A stretch of DNA of 63,759 bases from Candidatus Magasanikbacteria bacterium CG10_big_fil_rev_8_21_14_0_10_36_32. Its GTDB lineage: Bacteria; Patescibacteriota; Patescibacteriia; Magasanikbacterales; GWA2-37-8. Numbering within the stretch: the first letter of the stretch is position 1; each line of letters begins with the position of its first letter. The stretch is taken from positions 35,943-99,701 of the forward strand of contig PFBV01000004.1 of NCBI GenBank assembly GCA_002778465.1. Direction: 5' to 3'. The notes beneath the pieces are model-generated. The model had not been told where the DNA came from, did not search any database, and worked only from the letters and a program-made list of their open reading frames with translations. Below are positions 11,045 through 41,062 of this stretch, one piece after another. The translations under genes and the position numbers were made by a program.

Positions 11045-11115
11045 TTTGCAGGCTTTGATAAGATATATGCGTGTTCTTTACAAAATGTTTTTGAAGATCT
11101 TTTCAAACACTAAAC

Positions 11116-11595
11116 ATGGAGATAAAAATGGCTATTGTCAACTTAAACGATGTTGTGGAAATTTTGAAAAATTTGAATTCTCAAAATAGTTGCAATCTGG
11201 GTGCAAATTTAAAATTTTTGATTGATTTTTTAAAAAAGACCATTGCGTCGGGCCAAGGAATTGATCCCGCGGCACGTAATCGTATACGTGAAGAAATAAA
11301 TCGTCTTAAAGAAGAAGTTAAAGTGGAAAGCCGAAAACTTGCGGATCTGAGTAAGAAATATTCTGTTTTTCAAAAAGAATTACAGACAATCGCTCATCAG
11401 TGTGATTGGCTATCTCTAGACAGATTTATAGTTAATCAGATTTCTATTCTCAGCACTTTGGGTGTCAAATGCTCATCTTCAATATTGGCTGATATGTCAT
11501 ATACAGAACGGCTAAATTATTCTGTGGAATTGTTACATAAATTGGCCGCATGTTTGTCTGAACGAATGAAAAATTTGACAATTTCACCTGATTAA
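11116..11595 (+). CDS. hypothetical protein (coiled-coil rich)
   Basis: 159-aa ORF with host-like composition. No motif recognised. Confidence 0.4.
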   Translation: MEIKMAIVNLNDVVEILKNLNSQNSCNLGANLKFLIDFLKKTIASGQGIDPAARNRIREEINRLKEEVKVESRKLADLSKKYSVFQKELQTIAHQCDWLSLDRFIVNQISILSTLGVKCSSSILADMSYTERLNYSVELLHKLAACLSERMKNLTISPD

Positions 11596-17958: not shown

Positions 17959-18408
17959 ATGCCGGAACAAATTGCTGATTTAGCACAACGTATTGAAGTT
18001 ATTAAGTCAGAACGCAATCCATTAAATAAATATAGAGAATATATTAAGCTGATACAAAGTGAATTATCTGAAGAAGATTCTACTTTAGTGACTATTAATC
18101 CCGATGAATTAACTCAAACTGAGTTAGATATTTGGAATGAATTTTTTAATTTAATCGGTAAAATTGATAAAAATGCGTTTGAAAATCGTCGAGATGAATT
18201 GATTGTTGAGGCCGATGTACTTCTGAATAAAGTAAATGCTGATGGTGTAAACAAATCTTTTGTCGAATGGATGCGGAATCGGTTGACGATATTGGTTAGC
18301 GCCTTGCCAATAAAAAATTTTACTTGGGACAATGAAAATGGTCGGGGTTTTGGACAGTTGTTGGAGAAACAAAAAGAACGGTTATTTTATAATGATTTTA
18401 AGAATTAA
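17959..18408 (+). CDS. hypothetical protein inserted between dnaK and dnaJ
   Basis: 149-aa ORF on the same strand, tightly packed (dnaJ GTG starts 3 nt after its stop). No motif recognised. Confidence 0.5.
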   Translation: MPEQIADLAQRIEVIKSERNPLNKYREYIKLIQSELSEEDSTLVTINPDELTQTELDIWNEFFNLIGKIDKNAFENRRDELIVEADVLLNKVNADGVNKSFVEWMRNRLTILVSALPIKNFTWDNENGRGFGQLLEKQKERLFYNDFKN

Positions 18409-19679: not shown

Positions 19680-19708
19680 TTGACATATCTATTTAATTTT
19701 GTTATTTT
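19680..19708 (+). promoter_or_regulatory. sigma70-type promoter upstream of the GC-rich island gene
   Basis: TTGACA (19680-85), a 17-nt spacer including TGn, and TATTTT (19703-08), all in host-like AT-rich DNA. A CAGTGG/CCACTG hairpin at 19724-19745 lies in the leader. Confidence 0.45.
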
Positions 19709-19820
19709 AAACATATAAAATAACAGTGGTAAAATGAAGCCACTGATAAATATACAGTTCTTTACAATACAACGAATCTGCCCGAATCAAATATCGGACA
19801 GAAAATAGGAGGTAGTGAGT

Positions 19821-21968
19821 ATGTCTAAAAGCAAGAGTAATTTCATCGATAAGCTTTTGGGTAGTCAGACTCAGGTGGAGTTTTCCGATGAAGAGGAAAA
19901 TCTCCTGAATCTCATCCACGAGCGCGGTGGAAGATGCAACATCAAGGATCTTTCGCATCTCATGGACCAATCGGCAGCTGGAATTGTTGATCTGGCTCAG
20001 CAAGTGTGCGACAAGGGTGTCCGTATTTGGAAAGAGGACGGTGTTCTCTATCTGAGCGGCACTACTATCGAGTGTTTGCCCGAGCATGTTGTCATCAAGG
20101 AAAATAAGATTCGTATCGGCATCCTGGCTGACACGATGCTTGGTTCCAAGTACCAGCAATTGACCGGTCTCTACAGCGCATTTCAGATCGCCGAGCACGA
20201 AGGTGTGGACGTAATGTTCCATGTCGGAGTTTCGGCTGGAAAACCGACTCCGTCGAAGCAGGAGGAATTTTTTCTTTCCACCGCAGCGAAGCAGATCGAT
20301 TACATCGTCGCGAATTATCCGAAGTCGGATAAATTCAAGACGAAATTCGTTTCCGGTTTTCATGATATGCAGTGGAAGAAGGATAATTTGAATATCCTGG
20401 CTGAAGTTTGTTCGCGTCGCGATGATCTCGCTTACCGAGGTGATATTCAGTCTGACGTTTCCATCCGGAGGGGTCAGGCAAAAGATAAGAAGTGGCCCAT
20501 GCTCAAAGTCGTGTATCACGGTGGAGACACGAGCCCTTATTCCAAGTCGTATCCCGTACAGGGTCTCGTGGAGAACCTGATTCAGGATGTTGACGATTTG
20601 GTTGGAGAGAAGACTCCGGATGTCGTAGTGGTGGCAGGTCAGGGCGTTTACCTTGATCTTTCGGGTGGAAAAGTCCGAAACCTCTACGCGGTTCCCGGAA
20701 TGCGTCTTATTTCCCCCTCGATTCTTAGGCGGAAGAACCGCGCGGTTGCTCCGTCTATCGGTTTCGTTATCGTCACGGTGACCTTTGAAAAGGACGGCAC
20801 CTTCGCAGTGAAGGCCAAGTGCTATCCTCTCAAGGGCATCAAGAATGATTACCGCGAGAAGTTTTCCAAGAATCAGGAATTCCTTCGTGGTTTGAATTCT
20901 GACGAGCGTAAGGTTCTCAAGCTTTTGGAAGAGTCGCCCAAGTCAAGCGGTGAGCTTGAACAGGCGATTAATAAAAGTCCCGAGACGATTGATTCTATTA
21001 TTTTCGAACTTCAGAGCAAGGGTTTCATCATCAGTGAAATGAATGCGAGCAAGAATTTCAAGCTCAACTCTGTGTTCAAGAAGAAGTTCAACGTTCCTCC
21101 AATTAATTTTGATGATTACTTTTTCGAGACCGTTCGCGAAGGCGACATTTCGGATACGCACATCGGTAGTAATTCGGAACTCGTTCCGATTCAAGAAGAG
21201 GCATTCGAAATCTTTTCGAAAAGAGGAATCACCGTAGTTAATCACGGCGGAGACGTTTCCAACGGTTCACCGAAGCACGATGAGCATTTCAAGGGCGAGG
21301 TTCGTGAGTTCCGCGCCAGTCCGCTTATCTTTGACATCATCCGTCTCCTTCCGTCTCGCAAAGGCATTCAGATCTGTATGATTGCCGGCGATCACGATAG
21401 GTGGTTCTTGGATACCGTCGGTCTTGACCTTATTGCGCACGTGGCGCAAGCGCGTCCTGATATTAATTATCTTGGTATCCAGGATGGAGAGAGAAGGTCA
21501 AAGCGCATCATTACTCTTCTCAAGCACTTTAACTGGGGTACCGGCTATGCTCGGTCGTACAAACCCCAGCAGGTTATTGAGGACAGTATCCTGAAGGAAA
21601 TCGAGAAGGAGCCGGCAAGGTTCCGCGGTAAGGTTGTGGTTATTCTCTCCGGAGGCGGCCACGTCTACTGCTCGATGCTCTATAAGGGCGTTATCTTCAT
21701 TCTCCTTCCTTGTCTCCAGAGTCGGACCGGATTTATTAACGGACTCGGCAAGATCTCGGATGTGGGTTTCCTTATCCATTCCATAACTTATTCCAAGGAT
21801 GGAACTCTCACGAGATTCGGCACCGAATATTTTGATAGGACGGCGAAGGCTCTCGCGTTTCTTCGGAAGCGCAAGAATCTCCATCGTAATGTCAAAAAGA
21901 GCCGTGCTCGCGGTTACAAACCGCGTACGGTCAAGGCCAAAAGATCCGTTAAGAAGTCCAAGAAGTAA
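19821..21968 (+). CDS. tandem-duplicated [winged-helix + calcineurin-like metallophosphoesterase] protein with basic C-terminal tail; function unknown
   Basis: AGGAGG lies 7 nt upstream of the ATG. C-terminal half has DTH / GGDVSNG / GDHD / KH / GGGH in metallophosphoesterase motif order. N-terminal half aligns to it but reads DTM / VGVSAG / GFHD / GQG. About 50% GC with AAG, ATC, CTC, TTC codon bias. Confidence 0.8.
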   Translation: MSKSKSNFIDKLLGSQTQVEFSDEEENLLNLIHERGGRCNIKDLSHLMDQSAAGIVDLAQQVCDKGVRIWKEDGVLYLSGTTIECLPEHVVIKENKIRIGILADTMLGSKYQQLTGLYSAFQIAEHEGVDVMFHVGVSAGKPTPSKQEEFFLSTAAKQIDYIVANYPKSDKFKTKFVSGFHDMQWKKDNLNILAEVCSRRDDLAYRGDIQSDVSIRRGQAKDKKWPMLKVVYHGGDTSPYSKSYPVQGLVENLIQDVDDLVGEKTPDVVVVAGQGVYLDLSGGKVRNLYAVPGMRLISPSILRRKNRAVAPSIGFVIVTVTFEKDGTFAVKAKCYPLKGIKNDYREKFSKNQEFLRGLNSDERKVLKLLEESPKSSGELEQAINKSPETIDSIIFELQSKGFIISEMNASKNFKLNSVFKKKFNVPPINFDDYFFETVREGDISDTHIGSNSELVPIQEEAFEIFSKRGITVVNHGGDVSNGSPKHDEHFKGEVREFRASPLIFDIIRLLPSRKGIQICMIAGDHDRWFLDTVGLDLIAHVAQARPDINYLGIQDGERRSKRIITLLKHFNWGTGYARSYKPQQVIEDSILKEIEKEPARFRGKVVVILSGGGHVYCSMLYKGVIFILLPCLQSRTGFINGLGKISDVGFLIHSITYSKDGTLTRFGTEYFDRTAKALAFLRKRKNLHRNVKKSRARGYKPRTVKAKRSVKKSKK

Positions 21969-22018
21969 GATTCTATTTTTAGCAGATTCGTTTTGTTCTT
22001 AAGCAGTTCTTAAATCTT

Positions 22019-22048
22019 AACCCCGCAGTAATGCGGGGTTCTTATTTT
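22019..22048. terminator. bidirectional intrinsic terminator (island gene / rnhA)
   Basis: AACCCCGCA (22019-27), loop GTAA, TGCGGGGTT (22032-40). Both flanks are T/A-rich. Confidence 0.75.
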
Positions 22049-22049
22049 A

Positions 22050-22451
22050 TTATTTTTGTTTATCTAATGTTTCGTTTACTAATTTGTCAGCCTCAGTATT
22101 GTTTGCTCGTTCAGTATGTCGATAAGTCACTTTTTTAAATTGGGTGGCGGCGTTATACGCCTGAATGAATAATTTTTGCAGAGTTGGTTCTTTAACTTTG
22201 TATTCTTGTCTCATTTGTTTTACCACCAGTTCACTATCTAAAATACACTCAACTTCATCTGCATTAAATTCTTTGGCTTTTTTAAGTCCGGAAATTAAAG
22301 CTGCATACTCGGCATAATTATTAGTTTGTTCACCTAAATATTCTCCGTAGCCACAAATTATTTTTTGCTTTTCATCTTTAATGATCACTCCAATTGCAGC
22401 TGGTCCGGGATTGCCCCGTGCTCCGCCGTCAGTGTTAATTGTTAAACGCAT
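22050..22451 (-). CDS. rnhA: ribonuclease HI
   Basis: TDGGARGNPGPAA..., NNYAEY.AL, SELVVKQM, N..AD. 133 aa. Confidence 0.85.
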   Translation of the reverse strand: MRLTINTDGGARGNPGPAAIGVIIKDEKQKIICGYGEYLGEQTNNYAEYAALISGLKKAKEFNADEVECILDSELVVKQMRQEYKVKEPTLQKLFIQAYNAATQFKKVTYRHTERANNTEADKLVNETLDKQK

Positions 22452-23894: not shown

Positions 23895-25208
23895 ATGTCC
23901 TATTTAATTATTAATGGTGGACGAAAATTAAAGGGAAATATTACCAATCAATCAGCCAAAAATTCGGCTGTAGCTTTGTTGTGCGCTTCAGTAATGACAA
24001 AAGGAAAAGTTGTGTTATCAGATGTGCCTCAAATTGAAGAAGTTTTTCGTATTTTGGAATTATTAAAAAGCATTGGTGTTGTTATTAAAAAACTTGGTGA
24101 TAGAAAAATAATGTTGGATTCCTCACAACCTTTGCGGATGAAACAAATTGATAAACATGCTTCCGAAGCAACTCGCTCGTCTTTATTGTTACTTGGCGCT
24201 TTGTCCGCTCGTGAAAAAAAATATAAATTATATAAATCGGGCGGTTGTAAATTAGGTGAGCGCACTGTCCGTCCGCATTTGTATGCTTTGGAAAAGTTTG
24301 GTGTTGAAGTTAAGTCAGGCGACGGATTTTATGAAATTTCCAACAAACCGTTAAAGGCCGCTTATTTGGTAATGTATGAATCTGGTGATACAGCCACAGA
24401 AAATGCTGTTATGGCCGCGGTAATGGCTAAAGGAGTAACTACTATCAAAATGGCCTCAGCCAATTATATGGTGCAGGATCTTTGTTATTTTTTACAAAAA
24501 GCCGGAGCTAAAATTGAAGGTGTTGGTTCAACAACTTTAACCATAACTGGTGTTAAAAAATTGTCTCCAATTAAAGATTATCCGATTATGCCTGATCCGA
24601 TTGTGGCTATGACTTATATTTCCGTTGCTATTACTACCCAGTCTCGTTTAACGGTTAAAAATTGTCCGTTAGAATTTTTAGAATTGGAATTGTGTAAATT
24701 AGAAAAAATGGGCCAAAAATATAAAATTAAAAATAAAAGAAAATCAAAAAATAATAAATTTTCCGTGGCTGATATTGAATTGATTCCCGGTCCGTTATTT
24801 TCTTTGCCGGATAAAATTGATGGACGTCCTTTTCCCGGATTAAATATTGATAACTTACCATTATTTGTTCCCATTTTAACGCAGGCGCAAGGCCGAACCT
24901 TGGTGCATGATTGGGCTTATGAAAACAGAGCGATTTATTATATGGATTTGGTTAAAATGGGAGCCAGAATAACTTTGTTGGATCCGCATCGTGTTTGGGT
25001 GGAAGGTCCAAGTGAAATGATTGCCAAAGAATTGATGACTCCACCGGTTTTGCGTTTGGCGGTGGACATGCTAATTTGTATGCTAGCGGCGAAAGGAAAA
25101 TCAATTTTAAGAAATACTTATGAAATAGACAGAGGTTATGAAGGACTTTATGCTGTTTTAAATAAAGCCGGAGCTGACATTAAATTAATTAAGGAGGATA
25201 AATTATGA
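23895..25208 (+). CDS. murA: UDP-N-acetylglucosamine 1-carboxyvinyltransferase
   Basis: MSYLIINGG.KLKG.I, active-site loop SGGCKLGERTVRPH, C-terminal IDRGYE. The internal ATG at 23895 is preferred. Confidence 0.9.
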   Translation: MSYLIINGGRKLKGNITNQSAKNSAVALLCASVMTKGKVVLSDVPQIEEVFRILELLKSIGVVIKKLGDRKIMLDSSQPLRMKQIDKHASEATRSSLLLLGALSAREKKYKLYKSGGCKLGERTVRPHLYALEKFGVEVKSGDGFYEISNKPLKAAYLVMYESGDTATENAVMAAVMAKGVTTIKMASANYMVQDLCYFLQKAGAKIEGVGSTTLTITGVKKLSPIKDYPIMPDPIVAMTYISVAITTQSRLTVKNCPLEFLELELCKLEKMGQKYKIKNKRKSKNNKFSVADIELIPGPLFSLPDKIDGRPFPGLNIDNLPLFVPILTQAQGRTLVHDWAYENRAIYYMDLVKMGARITLLDPHRVWVEGPSEMIAKELMTPPVLRLAVDMLICMLAAKGKSILRNTYEIDRGYEGLYAVLNKAGADIKLIKEDKL

Positions 25209-26521
25209 TGGAAAATTTTCATCCGATAAAAATAAGAGCGAGTAAATATCTCGGATTATACTTATCAATAACTTTGTTTATTGTGGCTTTTGGTTTAGGA
25301 TTTTTATTTGGTCAAACAATTTATGTAAATAAAAAAGTTTCTAATGATAGTGGTGAAGAGCAAGTTTTAAAAGTGATTAATTTTAATCGCGATATTAGCA
25401 GGATAGAAACAGTTGATTTTGATCAATTTTGGGATGTTTGGGATAGGATAAAATCAAAATATGTCAATAAACCGATTAATGATATAGATTTGTTTTATGG
25501 AGCCATCAGTGGAATGGTCTATGCGCTTAATGATCCTTACTCTTTATTTTTCCCGCCAAAAGCAGCTGAAGAATTTACTAAAGATTTATCAGGTGAACTT
25601 GAAGGTATTGGGGCCGAAATAGGTATAAAGAATAATCAATTGTTGATTGTCGCGCCCCTGGCTGATTCACCCGCTGAAAAAGCAGGGTTGCGGCCGGGTG
25701 ACAAAATTATGGCTGTTGACAAGGAAAGCACTTTTGGTATGGGGGTGAATGAAGCAGTTGGTAAAATTCGGGGACAAGCCGGTACCGAAGTCGTTTTGAC
25801 TATCAGTCGGAACGGCGGATCCACCAAGACTCAGGATATAAAAATTATCAGGGCAAAAATTAATGTTCCATCAGTGACGTTTGAATGGAAATCCGGCAAA
25901 GTGGCTTATTTGAAAATTTTACAGTTTAATGATGATACCCAAAGTTTGTTTAATCGTTATGTAAAACAAATAAAAAACAATGAAGCCAAATCATTAATTT
26001 TGGATTTACGCAGTAATCCGGGCGGTTATTTGGAAGCGGCTGTAGTTATTGCCAGTGAATGGTTGAAAGATGGTGAAGTTGTGGTGAGTGAGAAATCAAA
26101 TGATGTGTTGATTAAACAGCATGAAGCTGACGGTTCTCATCGTTTAGCTGACGTGCCAACGGTAATTTTGGTAAATAGTGGTTCAGCCTCAGCTTCTGAA
26201 ATTGTTTCTGGTGCATTACAAGATTACGGAAAAGCGATTATTATAGGAGAGCGAACTTTTGGTAAGGGTTCGGTACAAGATTTTGAAACATTTATGGATG
26301 GTTCAGCTTTGAAATTAACTGTAGCTGAATGGTATACGCCAGATGGACGAAATATTAATCAAGGAGGTATTTTGCCTGATGTGGAATTTAAAGAAGATTG
26401 GGACAATGAAGATGTTGGGGAAGATACGATGATAGATAAAGCCGTAGAGGTATTAAAATACGGCATACCTCCGCCAGAAGAAATTATTACTACCACTACT
26501 CCGCCCGCTGTTGTTCAATAA
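25205..26521 (+). CDS. S41 C-terminal processing peptidase with PDZ domain (host-like composition)
   Basis: PDZ (GLRPGDKIMAVD), LDLRSNPGGYL, GSASASEI, GERTFGKG. ATGA overlap with the murA stop. Confidence 0.88.
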   Translation: MMENFHPIKIRASKYLGLYLSITLFIVAFGLGFLFGQTIYVNKKVSNDSGEEQVLKVINFNRDISRIETVDFDQFWDVWDRIKSKYVNKPINDIDLFYGAISGMVYALNDPYSLFFPPKAAEEFTKDLSGELEGIGAEIGIKNNQLLIVAPLADSPAEKAGLRPGDKIMAVDKESTFGMGVNEAVGKIRGQAGTEVVLTISRNGGSTKTQDIKIIRAKINVPSVTFEWKSGKVAYLKILQFNDDTQSLFNRYVKQIKNNEAKSLILDLRSNPGGYLEAAVVIASEWLKDGEVVVSEKSNDVLIKQHEADGSHRLADVPTVILVNSGSASASEIVSGALQDYGKAIIIGERTFGKGSVQDFETFMDGSALKLTVAEWYTPDGRNINQGGILPDVEFKEDWDNEDVGEDTMIDKAVEVLKYGIPPPEEIITTTTPPAVVQ

Positions 26522-27815: not shown

Positions 27816-27891
27816 TACCTTAAGTAAATAATAGTTCTTTATACAATTTAAATCCGCAAAACAAAGCAACAAAGTGGTATGGGAGGACAAA

Positions 27892-29064
27892 ATGGAAAAT
27901 GAAATGAAGAGTTGTGGTTTTTTTAGGAAGAGTTTGCCTTGGGTGGTTGTTTTTATTCTGATGCTGTCGGCATTCGGCGGCGGTATGTGTTGTTCTCATG
28001 TCACCTCTATGGCTCGGGAAGACCGGCTGGAGGATGTGTTGGACAACATTCGCGAGAATCATGTCGGTTCTTACGATGAAGATGAATTGTATTACGGGGC
28101 CATCAAGGGAGCTGTGGAATCGCTAAATGATCCTTTTACCAGTTATTTGACTCCGTCTGAGGCGACGGCTTATTTCAAAAGAAATAAGGGTGAAATGGTC
28201 GGTATCGGTATTGGCTATCAGATTGACCAGCAGAAACAATTTAGAATTATTTCTGTGGTGGTTGGCGGTCCGGCTGACAAAGCCGGTCTGCGAAGTGGCG
28301 ATATTATTTTGAAAGTTGACGGAGCAGAACTTGTTGGTTTGGACATGCAGGGATTTTCTGATAAGGTTAGGGGAAAGGAAAATACTCAAGTAAAACTGAC
28401 TGTTCAAAAGGTAGATTCGGAACAGCCGGCAGAAGTCATTATTGTTCGTTCAAAGGTTATTTTTCCGACAGTGACTTGCTCTATCAAAAATACTAGCATT
28501 CTTTATATCTCAGTCAGCCATTTTAATGACGCTGTTATGAATGGTGTTTATAACTGCGCTCGTCAGTATGTGAACGAAAATACTGTAGGAATAGTTCTTG
28601 ATTTGCGCAATAATCCCGGCGGTTCACTGGAAGCATCCAGAAAGTTGGCTAGCGAGTGGATGACAAAAAGTGATATGCTGGTTTATACGATTAAAGATCG
28701 TAAGGGCAAAGATGAACTCGGAATGTCATCTGAGGAGCATCTTTTTGCCGGCATGAAAACAGTCGTATTGGTAAATAAAGGTTCAGCCTCAGCTTCTGAA
28801 GTGGTCGCCGGCGCTTTGCAGGATTACAAGTTGGCGACTATTATCGGCGAGAAAACTTATGGCAAGGGAGTGGGACAACACCTTACGGTCTTGTCAGATG
28901 GTTCGTTGCTGATATTGGTATCATTCAAATGGTACACACCTCTTGGTCGCAATGTCCACAAAATCGGTTTAACGCCGGATATTCGAATTTCGGTTGATAT
29001 GGACAAGGTCGGATGGGACACTGATCCTGTTTTGGACAAGGCATTGGAGTTTCTTTCCAAGTAG
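27892..29064 (+). CDS. S41 C-terminal processing peptidase, second copy (GC-shifted)
   Basis: GGGAGG RBS upstream of the ATG at 27892. PDZ (GLRSGDIILKVD), LDLRNNPGGSL, GSASASEV, GEKTYGKG. 31/60 GC at 28261-28320. Confidence 0.85.
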   Translation: MENEMKSCGFFRKSLPWVVVFILMLSAFGGGMCCSHVTSMAREDRLEDVLDNIRENHVGSYDEDELYYGAIKGAVESLNDPFTSYLTPSEATAYFKRNKGEMVGIGIGYQIDQQKQFRIISVVVGGPADKAGLRSGDIILKVDGAELVGLDMQGFSDKVRGKENTQVKLTVQKVDSEQPAEVIIVRSKVIFPTVTCSIKNTSILYISVSHFNDAVMNGVYNCARQYVNENTVGIVLDLRNNPGGSLEASRKLASEWMTKSDMLVYTIKDRKGKDELGMSSEEHLFAGMKTVVLVNKGSASASEVVAGALQDYKLATIIGEKTYGKGVGQHLTVLSDGSLLILVSFKWYTPLGRNVHKIGLTPDIRISVDMDKVGWDTDPVLDKALEFLSK

Positions 29065-30518: not shown

Positions 30519-30527
30519 TAAAATAAA

Positions 30528-30557
30528 AGCCCCGACCGAAGTCGGGGCTGGTTTTTT
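30528..30557. terminator. bidirectional intrinsic terminator
   Basis: AGCCCCGAC (30528-36), loop CGAA, GTCGGGGCT (30541-49), then GGTTTTTT. A-rich on the left. Confidence 0.8.
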
Positions 30558-30574
30558 GGAGAAAAAGGTGGCGA

Positions 30575-30926
30575 TCAGATGAATTCCCAGACGTGCTCGT
30601 AGTGGTCGCAGACCACGCAGAGGTCGATATCCTGGTCATCTGGTTTCTTTTGTAACTCTTTCCGCAGATGTTGCAGACCGCAGTTATGACTATCTTGTAC
30701 CGGAGCGTCCTTTTGCCGCAGCAGTGCGTATCACCCTTGACGGTCGAACCGAAGATGCCACGAACTGGCACGATGTCGATCTGTTCTGTTCCTTTTTGGG
30801 GAACTGGCCTGTGGTGTCCGGGAACCGTCTTGTTGGATTCGGGAACCATTGACGAACATCGGGCACATAGACATTTCTTTGCCGTGTTTTTCTCCTTGTT
30901 TTTAGGTTTCCTTTGAGGATTGCCAT
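30575..30926 (-). pseudogene. frameshifted CxxC-rich (zinc-ribbon-like) small ORF, or unannotated small gene, in a ~57% GC segment
   Basis: Minus-strand reading is split over three frames: MAILKGNLKTRRK.. / ..KKCLCARCSSMVPES..HCCGKRT..CNICGKSYK / ..KKPDDQDIDLCVVCDHYEHVWEFI*. The last stop, at 30575, is 25 nt before the terminator. Frame junctions coincide with A-runs. Confidence 0.3.
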
Positions 30927-31004
30927 GTTTTTAAAGAACTGAGTAGTTTAGTACATTTTGAGGGTTTTGTACAGGGTTTATTTAGGCGTTGGAAATTAGT
31001 AAAT

Positions 31005-31036
31005 AGAAATTAAAAACCTCGGCCATTCGCCGGGGT
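31005..31036. terminator. bidirectional intrinsic terminator
   Basis: AACCTCGGC (31005-13) pairs with GCCGGGGTT (31019-27) with one G-U pair. T-runs on both strands. Confidence 0.65.
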
Positions 31037-31061
31037 TTTTGTTTTTGTGTTTTTTGTGAAT

Positions 31062-40516: not shown

Positions 40517-41062
40517 TTAAAAGCGTGGGTAGAAAATTCTGAATCTGCCACCCCACTTGTATGTATCGTCGATTGAAAGTGTGTTGAGGTTCCAACCTTC
40601 GTTAAACCAAGTTGTGATGACGGTTCGTGGAATACCACTGGTGTCGCGGACACAGAATATGTTTGGGTGGCCTTTGTGGAGAATGGCCTGGCGTTGTCCG
40701 CTTTTCTGGTGTTTCATCAGTTGGTAAATTCCGAACATGGTCGTTATGACTTTGGATTCACCGCCCAAATTGGCGATGATTTTTTTTGGGTTGAAATGAT
40801 CTTTCTGATGATCAAGGTAACCGTACTGAATTGGTGTGTTTTTTGTTTTTTCACAAAGCCCGAAAAAATATTTTTTAAACAAATGGTTGGCGCCGGAAAT
40901 TTTTACCGTCGCTGTTTCAGAAGTGTCTGTTTTAAAATTGTCGGACACGACGAAAACGATATTTGTGTCGGGTTTTTGCGCGTTGTCAGTTTTCAGAATA
41001 GATTGCCACAGCTTGCTGAGAGATTTTAAAATTTTCTCATACCAGTTGTTTTTACGGTTCAT
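40517..41062 (-). CDS. hypothetical protein (orphan, GC-shifted)
   Basis: 181-aa ORF with its own terminator. 24/60 and 32/60 GC in the lines at 40561 and 40621. No motif recognised. Confidence 0.55.
   Translation of the reverse strand: MNRKNNWYEKILKSLSKLWQSILKTDNAQKPDTNIVFVVSDNFKTDTSETATVKISGANHLFKKYFFGLCEKTKNTPIQYGYLDHQKDHFNPKKIIANLGGESKVITTMFGIYQLMKHQKSGQRQAILHKGHPNIFCVRDTSGIPRTVITTWFNEGWNLNTLSIDDTYKWGGRFRIFYPRF

Follow-up and report, generated by a model that had tools for sequence, protein, structure and literature searches.

Does a gene-sized rise in GC content reveal a gene acquired from elsewhere, or can it be produced by selection acting on a resident gene? We wanted to answer this question for an open reading frame (ORF) located between dnaJ and rnhA in a 63.8-kb stretch of DNA (63,759 nucleotides, here called the window) from contig PFBV01000004.1 of Candidatus Magasanikbacteria bacterium CG10_big_fil_rev_8_21_14_0_10_36_32. 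The ORF, here called the target, occupies positions 19821-21968 of the plus strand. A preliminary description of the window had offered two explanations, a recently acquired single-gene cargo or a gene under very unusual constraint. Our results speak for the latter: the anomaly is codon-specific and confined to silent sites, and it is accompanied by extra conservation of these sites and extra folding of the mRNA. With moderate confidence, we regard the target as native to a Parcubacteria clade and inherited vertically within it, its composition reflecting gene-specific selection on synonymous sites (mRNA stability, translation) and not foreign origin.

Base composition, silent sites and mRNA folding of the target

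The coding sequence (CDS) of the target is the compositional island (all positions are those of the window):

19821..21968, plus strand: target CDS, 715 aa; share of G+C at third codon positions (GC3) 0.57, share of A at these positions (A3) 0.11; translation identical to database protein P0001

We placed the start at the ATG at 19821 and the stop at 21968. The other in-frame start, a GTG at 19815, follows the Shine-Dalgarno (SD) sequence by just 2 nt, which is too close. The GC content was 0.47-0.53 in the interior of the target, 0.24-0.34 upstream and 0.28-0.35 downstream, and 1-kb bins exceeding 0.45 were found solely within the target. The hand counts with which the preliminary description had set a target of about 50% GC apart from its AT-rich neighbours were exact (30/60 at 20041-20100, 15/60 at 18001-18060). 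It had also placed the limits of the shift at the start and stop codons, and bins of 60 nt agree with this. GC was 0.17, 0.25 and 0.38 before the ATG and 0.40, 0.48, 0.48 and 0.53 after it; at the other end it was 0.48 before the stop and 0.35 and 0.25 after it. The compositional edges fall on the start and stop codons, and the intergenic flanks remain at 17-35% GC.

The atypical composition was borne out by the analysis of codon positions, which located the shift in third positions alone. The GC content of first and second positions (GC1 0.53, GC2 0.35) was dnaK-like, while GC3 was 0.57 as compared with a mean of 0.303 in the 56 other ORFs of the window (sd 0.053, max 0.489; z = +5.0). A3 was 0.109 in the target and 0.307 ± 0.047 in the other ORFs (z = -4.2). 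What the target has lost is third-position A, and this describes the anomaly more sharply than a rise in GC. The shares of the four bases at third positions were as follows:

A3: target 0.11, other window ORFs 0.31
T3: target 0.32, other window ORFs 0.39 (little change)
C3: target 0.29, other window ORFs 0.12
G3: target 0.28, other window ORFs 0.18

Among 59 leucine codons of the target we found neither TTA (background 40%) nor CTA. Other A-ending codons were nearly absent (ACA 0/27, ATA 1/55, CCA 1/25), and AAA was used in 22% of cases compared with 86% in the background. The C-ending codons were raised: TTC 58% vs 11%, ATC 56% vs 11%, TAC 50% vs 17% and AAC 32% vs 16% in the background. The earlier statement that AAG, ATC, CTC, TTC and GAC are used almost exclusively was exaggerated, as their shares are 78, 56, 39, 58 and 33%, with CTT at 36%.

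We compared the target with its flanking genes in 20 distinct orthologous loci (L-numbers below denote such loci in other genomes). A3 was below that of the neighbours in 20/20 loci, and the target was usually the minimum of its locus; GC3 of the flanking genes ranged from 0.24 to 0.58. C3 and G3 were higher in 18/20 loci, while T3 was unchanged on average and rose in 9/20. The codons preferred by the target were TTC and CAG (20/20 loci), AAG, AAC and GTC (19/20), and ATC and CAC (18/20). TTA, CAA and CCA were preferred in none of the 20 loci, and ACA, ATA, GTA and AAA almost never. GGG was avoided (2/20 loci), and CGG, AGG, GCG, CCG and GTG showed no rise. C is preferred to T in the codons of Phe, Tyr, Ile and Asn; this preference, the rarity of A-ending codons and the avoidance of GGG are family-wide (14-20 of 20 loci), and many lineages also prefer G-ending codons for Lys, Glu and Gln. 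Since A and not T is depleted, the constraint acts on the transcript or on translation and not on duplex DNA. Since the shift recurs throughout the clade, a one-off transfer into the genome of the window cannot explain the trait.

Single-module viral homologues, used as a negative control, had a mean A3 difference of 0.000 (20 loci), and in two-module homologues at 25% identity the offset was absent or small. The effective number of codons was 9-13 below the value expected from GC3 at synonymous sites in the majority of orthologues with a strong shift. Similar deficits are seen in dnaK, clpB and murA of the window.

We further assessed conservation of silent sites as the share of identical codons at conserved residues minus the permutation expectation. 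The excess was 0.16 for the target and 0.10 for dnaJ between the window and its nearest relative, locus L010, and 0.13 for the target and 0.04 for ligA and gatA between L011 and L134. In both genome pairs the synonymous divergence of the target was reduced in comparison with neighbour genes. A test of the Akashi type gave a weak signal, A-ending codons being fewer at conserved residues (z = -2.1); Akashi is said to have devised the accuracy test on which it is modelled.

The mean minimum free energy of folding (MFE) per 150 nt was -42 kcal/mol for the target and -22 to -38 kcal/mol for 13 other window genes, of which the extreme, ctp2 at -38, is also a compositional outlier. We then compared folding with that of permuted sequences, in which synonymous codons were shuffled and both the protein and the codon usage were held fixed. 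The z value of the window target was -3.2, and it was negative in 20/20 orthologues. Orthologues differed from neighbouring genes (Mann-Whitney test on folding z, p = 3.5e-7):

Orthologues of the target (n = 20): median folding z -3.1, median excess -3.0 kcal/mol per 150 nt
Neighbouring control genes (n = 58): median folding z -0.9, median excess -0.8 kcal/mol per 150 nt

Of the four bases, A has the smallest choice of pairing partners, so that replacement of third-position A by C or G is the expected outcome of selection for pairing. Consensus folding of a six-sequence subclade gave z < -2 against codon-column shuffles in 15/36 folding windows, while a matched comparison of three genomes was weak (mean z -0.76 vs -0.06, the control gene being more divergent). 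A conserved RNA structure within the CDS, suggestive with six sequences and weak with the matched control, is not claimed here. The Rfam scan found nothing at E <= 1 in the target region and nothing at gathering scores in the whole window.

Descent of the target and competing explanations

We wanted to see whether the junctions of the target could be an assembly artefact, as the preliminary description had allowed. Contigs from four sources, independent in sample and assembler (ENA ERZ27293412, ENA ERZ27293414, JGI 3300004209 and Logan SRR6240784), showed 100% identity with the window across 6-10 kb that include both junctions, and spanned grpE/dnaK-dnaJ-target-rnhA-murA. An artefact is excluded as far as such a comparison of contigs reaches. 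The ORFs flanking the target belong to the dnaK operon, rnhA, a gene for a PEGA-domain protein and murA.

Approximately 28 proteins were 50-77% identical to the target product, and all the named ones came from Parcubacteria/Patescibacteria; across Parcubacteria lineages the family is about 55% identical. The search for a donor lineage, which the preliminary description had proposed, thus returned only Parcubacteria/Patescibacteria among named homologues of at least 50% identity. The nearest relative was P0002 from L010 (77% amino acid identity), with no match closer. In this locus, the one close relative compared, the gene order is orf149-dnaJ-target, the same as in the window, and the identity to the window was 77.3% for the target and 77.4% for the adjacent DnaJ. 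Common to the leaders of both loci are the 11-mer GTTCTTTACAA and a hairpin, one arm of which is G-U-compensated. Gene order is kept and divergence equals that of DnaJ, and the target thus appears to have been inherited vertically. The comparison of the dnaJ-rnhA interval in relatives, also proposed earlier, gave a divided answer: the position after orf149-dnaJ held in L010, while synteny with dnaJ and rnhA is not kept beyond it and more distant orthologues stand in unrelated contexts. GC3 of the L010 orthologue is 0.40. At residues conserved between the two targets, A->G changes counted 69 against 8 and T->C changes 65 against 32 (net). As the preliminary description had noted, no integrase, transposase or tRNA lies nearby: there is no tRNA in the window, and no integrase or transposase was recognised among its ORF translations (judged by eye, most of them without a Pfam scan). 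No flanking repeats were found at the target.

These data bear on every explanation that looks for the cause in the DNA itself. For a chimeric assembly of two organisms' DNA speaks the jump in composition and nothing else; with both junctions identical in four assemblies and the dnaJ-target junction found again in L010, its probability is negligible. Recent horizontal gene transfer (HGT), or replacement of the native allele in place by one from a donor richer in GC, with the gene put under native signals, would account for a strong compositional outlier limited to a single gene, for GC3 of 0.57 far above the 0.40 of the syntenic orthologue with net A->G and T->C changes, and it would agree with the presence of viral members in the wider superfamily. 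We nevertheless consider it improbable. The position of the target and its protein divergence relative to L010 equal those of DnaJ, the leader motifs are common to both loci, and the best matches are all from Parcubacteria, none closer than L010. Moreover, GC1 and GC2 are host-like, T3 is undepleted, no rise is seen in GGG, CGG or AGG, and mobility genes, tRNA and flanking repeats were not found. The edges at start and stop codons are not plausible recombination joints. As 20/20 loci in unrelated contexts are shifted, repeated transfer always directed from GC-rich to AT-rich genomes would be needed, which is far-fetched. The idea of a recently acquired single-gene cargo is therefore not supported, given synteny in L010, divergence equal to that of DnaJ, Parcubacteria homologues and the shift in 20/20 loci. 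A neutral local rise in GC, due to GC-biased gene conversion at a recombination hotspot or to transcription-associated mutational asymmetry, fits the elevated GC3 of all orthologues and the net transitions towards G/C relative to L010, and is in our opinion highly improbable. Gene conversion predicts a symmetric loss of A and T with spill-over into the flanks; instead T3 is up in 9/20 loci, the GC content of the flanks is 17-35%, and the change depends on the codon, GGG being avoided. We rejected it, and plain GC drift, on T3, on the AT-rich flanks and on GGG, CGG and AGG. A plain rise in GC, whether due to a foreign donor, to biased gene conversion or to mutation bias, would have raised such G-ending codons and taken away T together with A. 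Deamination of the coding strand predicts C->T changes and a lower C3, while C3 is up in 18/20 loci. Neither process predicts folding beyond codon usage or extra conservation of silent sites.

The remaining explanations place the cause in what the sequence encodes or how its RNA behaves. An antisense overlapping gene would force avoidance of TTA, CTA and TCA, since these codons read as stops in the antisense frame that is aligned with them. Antisense ORFs at 19707-20519, 20943-21245, 21267-21449 and 21498-21884 all lie in this one frame, which is broken solely by three TCA codons, and TTA and CTA both count zero. However, codons irrelevant to such stops are depleted equally (ACA 0/27, CCA 1/25, ATA 1/55, and also AAA and CAA), the frame is not conserved (TTA makes up 25-34% of Leu codons in the orthologues of L002, L005 and L008), and long antisense ORFs are expected as a by-product of low A3. 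We find this explanation barely credible, and the candidate was rejected on the equal depletion and the unconserved frame. Seen as a feature of the window, the minus strand at 19707-21884 is open except for three TGA codons, with ORFs of 270, 100, 60 and 128 aa, and we judged it to be such a by-product. A more serious rival, though still unlikely, holds that the silent sites were shaped by a special RNA-level need of this gene and not by high expression as such. The mRNA could possibly resist an A-dependent or single-strand-specific ribonuclease (a ribosome-dependent toxin needing third-position A, or the phosphodiesterase activity of the encoded protein); it could possibly be translated under stress with impaired U34-dependent decoding of A-ending codons; or the CDS could possibly contain conserved structured RNA elements. 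In favour of such a need are a bias exceeding that of rplJ/rplL, groEL and dnaK of the same genomes, a depletion that concerns only A, and only on the sense strand, the over-folded mRNA, the six-sequence consensus folding (z < -2 in 15/36) and the proteostasis neighbours (dnaK operon, groEL, ClpB-D2-like AAA+, PCMT, MsrB) in 7 of about 13 contexts. On the other side, a toxin or nuclease partner was not identified, the neighbouring true stress genes dnaK and dnaJ are without bias, the conserved-structure signal is weak in the matched three-genome control (-0.76 vs -0.06), and there is no Rfam match. In a bolder form, the clade-wide "A-less, over-folded" mRNA design would be an immunity or regulatory device and not an expression-level effect, the transcript staying stable and translatable when RNases of these kinds are active or decoding of A-ending codons is impaired. 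We mention this form tentatively and hold it to be rather unlikely.

Gene-specific selection on synonymous sites, the explanation that we favour, has to be weighed against several findings which do not fit it well. dnaK, grpE, dnaJ, rplI, lepA and clpB of the window do not show the bias of the target, and in dnaK TTT makes up 100% of Phe and TTA/TTG 92% of Leu codons. The same bias in other highly conserved genes, which according to the preliminary description would have refuted its view, was thus not seen within the window; the reference genes come from the window, and EF-Tu and the main ribosomal-protein operons of the genome lie outside it. In L001 rplJ/rplL is nearly unbiased while the target is extreme. 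The offset varies by lineage (GC3 +0.01 to +0.27) and is small in the nearest relative L010 (GC3 0.40). The synonymous permutation used for folding ignores codon-junction dinucleotides, although the same control was run on all 58 comparison genes. In other loci reference genes share a part of the bias. The adjacent rplJ/rplL in L011 and L134 match the target in G-ending Lys, Glu and Gln codons and in the C-ending codons of pyrimidine-ending pairs (NNY) and not in the four-fold loss of A, whereas the adjacent groEL in L009 matches its four-fold shift and not the two-fold one. The target always equals or exceeds reference genes in bias, and usually its bias is much stronger. Given the contrast in L001, ordinary expression-linked codon selection cannot be the whole story. 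It is at best a part of the picture, and a gene-specific RNA-level requirement is needed besides it.

Expression signals, gene neighbourhoods and predicted product

We analyzed the surroundings of the CDS for signals of expression. The preliminary description had reported a promoter-like site, an AGGAGG ribosome binding site and a terminator, and all three were found where it had placed them. Together with the leader elements, the features around the CDS are as follows:

19680..19708, plus strand: putative promoter-like site TTGACA-N17-TATTTT with TG extension (consensus match only, 10/12 matches)
19724..19745, plus strand: hairpin CAGTGG-N10-CCACTG close to the 5' end of the leader (sequence and fold)
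19757..19767, plus strand: leader 11-mer GTTCTTTACAA, identical in L010, with variants in L011, L134, L135 and L001
19777..19802, plus strand: second leader hairpin TCTGCCCGA-N8-TCGGACAGA, ending 5 nt 5' of the SD, which is not sequestered
19807..19812, plus strand: SD sequence AGGAGG, 8 nt 5' of the ATG
22019..22050, no strand assigned: intrinsic terminator hairpin AACCCCGCAGTAATGCGGGGTT with T-run (hairpin 22019-22040), common to the target and convergent rnhA
22050-22451, minus strand: rnhA, convergent with the target

The target stands alone, with an upstream spacer of 190-340 nt. Comparable TTGACA/TTGATA-N17-TATATT boxes were read by eye in the leaders of orthologues, 60-110 nt 5' of the start, and GGAGG or AAGGAG stands at an equal distance in nearly all of them. 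The site equivalent to the first hairpin in L010 reads CAGTGGTA-N5-TACCATTG, its pairing kept via G-U wobble, and the hairpin probably serves as a 5' stabiliser of the mRNA. Two perfect copies of GTTCTTTACAA were found in the window, at 11073-11083 and 19757-19767 (plus strand), each 40-60 nt 5' of a start codon, namely those of the ORF 11116-11595 and of the target. The 11-mer may be a regulatory motif common to both genes. We rejected it as a window-wide motif, as counts with up to 2 mismatches are at chance level and the two exact copies alone stand out.

If the silent sites of the target are under the selection that we favour, the selected property would be expression, that is mRNA half-life together with translation. 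A-poor, G/C-enriched third positions would make the mRNA compact and nuclease-resistant and would allow efficient decoding. Such an mRNA would give a high or robust output of protein when combined with a promoter close to the consensus, hairpins in the leader, a strong SD and a strong terminator. The protein would then be abundant.

A proteostasis gene was located within two genes of the target in 7 of about 13 distinct contexts (rough binomial p ~3e-6, on our assumed 6% per context):

dnaK operon: window, L010
groEL: L009, L053
ClpB-D2-like AAA+ gene: L002, L004, L135
PCMT: L001
MsrB: L061, L135

In three to four lineages rplJ-rplL follows downstream of the target. A gene for an AAA_2/ClpB_D2-small ATPase (~490-550 aa) lies directly downstream on the same strand in L002 (12313-13779), L004 (12006-13658) and L135 (12215-13699), and it may be an operon partner of the target. 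No Rad50/SbcC or polymerase (DP2) partner was adjacent to the target in the approximately 13 contexts.

The product is predicted to be an uncharacterised tandem protein, in which a winged-helix (wHTH) domain followed by a metallophosphoesterase (MPE) domain occurs twice. The AlphaFold2 (AF2) model had a mean per-residue confidence (pLDDT) of 83 and a predicted template modelling score (pTM) of 0.83. The assignment of domains was as follows:

19887..20054, plus strand: N-terminal winged-helix domain, residues 23-78 (AF2 model; weak profile matches to Csa3-type HTH)
20082..20828, plus strand: first metallophosphoesterase-fold domain, residues 88-336 (degenerate metal motifs)
20898..21065, plus strand: central winged-helix domain, residues 360-415 (weak sequence matches; AF2 helical pattern)
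21126..21836, plus strand: second metallophosphoesterase domain, residues 436-672, motifs intact (Pfam PF00149, 21.6 bits vs cut-off 21.5)
21840..21965, plus strand: C-terminal long helix and lysine/arginine-rich tail (tail with low pLDDT, variable among orthologues)

In the first MPE domain (alignment A1) DxH is replaced by D-T-x-L and GD is lost, while HD is kept. The second domain has D445-x-H447, G477-D478, G-[DN]-H525-D526, H569 and H614, and in 25 sequences no variation occurs at D445, H447, G477, D478, N481, H525, D526, H569 or H614. The first and second MPE halves are 25.6% identical (E = 4e-13), and the two halves of the protein derive from an ancient duplication. The central wHTH matched Pfam HTH_5 with E of 0.039 (under the curated cut-off), AdcR/MarR in PDB with E of 0.001, and Csa3-type HTH in PADLOC/NCBIfam. 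In Foldseek the fold was nearest to PolD DP1 and Mre11/SbcD (probability 1.0, TM-scores 0.25-0.45). NCBIfam and PDB sequence searches with the product gave matches at the level of the HTH only, the PADLOC search for defence systems gave generic HTH matches only, the libraries searched contain no function name for the family, and a literature search found no paper on it. At 50% identity the superfamily falls into more than 2000 clusters, among them proteins with a single wHTH+MPE module and versions from phages; the phage relatives with one module carry the annotation "DNA repair exonuclease". Forty viral contigs from IMG/VR (L013-L052) encode single-module relatives of ~290-356 aa with 21-29% identity, matching both halves, and their codon usage is ordinary for their genomes.

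We also observed other features in the window. A second codon-usage outlier, shifted in the same direction as the target, lies at 27874-29064 (plus strand), with GC3 of 0.44, TTA in 1/34 Leu codons, 48% of Lys, Glu and Gln codons G-ending and an mRNA folding z of -2.4. The product is an S41/PDZ C-terminal processing peptidase, and its paralogue at 25205-26521 has normal composition. The 540-bp spacer 30519-31061, between rplI and a sugar-transferase gene, has a core at 30560-30900 with 51% GC and a terminator-like GC-rich hairpin with a U-run at each end. It contains no clean ORF, its frames resemble a frameshifted ORF for a Cys-rich zinc-ribbon protein on the minus strand, and folding gave z of -4.5 for the minus strand and -2.6 for the plus strand, with no Rfam match. 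An ORF of 181 aa at 40517-41062 (minus strand, no Pfam match) has 59% of NNY codons C-ending and GC3 of 0.49, in a profile unlike that of the target. The 149-aa ORF at 17959-18408 (plus strand), located between dnaK and dnaJ, keeps this position in L010 at 43% identity and has no Pfam match.

Comparison with known systems

Selected codon usage of highly expressed genes is a classic false positive of compositional HGT detection, and a preference of C over U at Phe, Tyr, Ile and Asn codons was reportedly described by Sharp and colleagues. The target resembles highly expressed genes in that its shift concerns third positions only, with a preference for TTC, ATC, AAC, CAC and TAC and an avoidance of ATA, CTA, GGG and AGA. 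Its silent substitution is likewise reduced, its expression signals, like those of orthologues, are strong, and the bias is partly common to rplJ/rplL and groEL in some genomes. It differs from them in that its bias tops that of ribosomal-protein and chaperone genes of the same genomes, while dnaK, grpE and rplI of the window lack the bias altogether, and it adds G-ending Lys, Glu and Gln codons and a near-total loss of A3.

Native mRNAs form more stable structures than their codon-shuffled versions, and structure within coding sequences prolongs functional half-life. The target agrees with such selection for mRNA structure, with about 3 kcal/mol per 150 nt beyond permutations in 20 orthologues, depleted A and 5' hairpins. 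The effect is, however, about 3 times that of the 58 neighbour genes and is coupled to a large change of composition limited to one gene.

In terms of the protein, the C-terminal fold and metal-binding motifs of the target product are like those of Mre11/SbcD and PolD-DP1 calcineurin-like metallophosphoesterases (PF00149, PF12850). Unlike them, it is a tandem wHTH+MPE protein with a degenerate first site and no adjacent Rad50/SbcC or polymerase partner, and the TM-scores are just 0.25-0.45.

These comparisons matter in two respects. A compositional "island" can stem from silent-site selection and not from gene transfer, and, if our reading is right, this holds even for small AT-rich genomes of the candidate phyla radiation (CPR), in which codon selection is commonly taken to be weak. 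The target family shows the strongest silent-site selection seen in these loci, and a silent-site bias above that of the available ribosomal-protein and chaperone genes makes its product a candidate for an abundant or stress-critical protein. If true, the unlikely reading of an "A-less" mRNA device would connect a conserved wHTH-phosphoesterase with the way in which Parcubacteria respond to stress through chaperones and protein repair.

In summary, the target is like the single-gene islets left by HGT in its gene-sized atypical composition and sharp edges. It is unlike them in having no mobility signature, in being syntenic in the nearest relative, in its host-like GC1 and GC2 and in a trait that is family-wide. 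The kind of phenomenon, selected codon usage mimicking HGT, is known, and this gene is a new and uncharacterised case of it.

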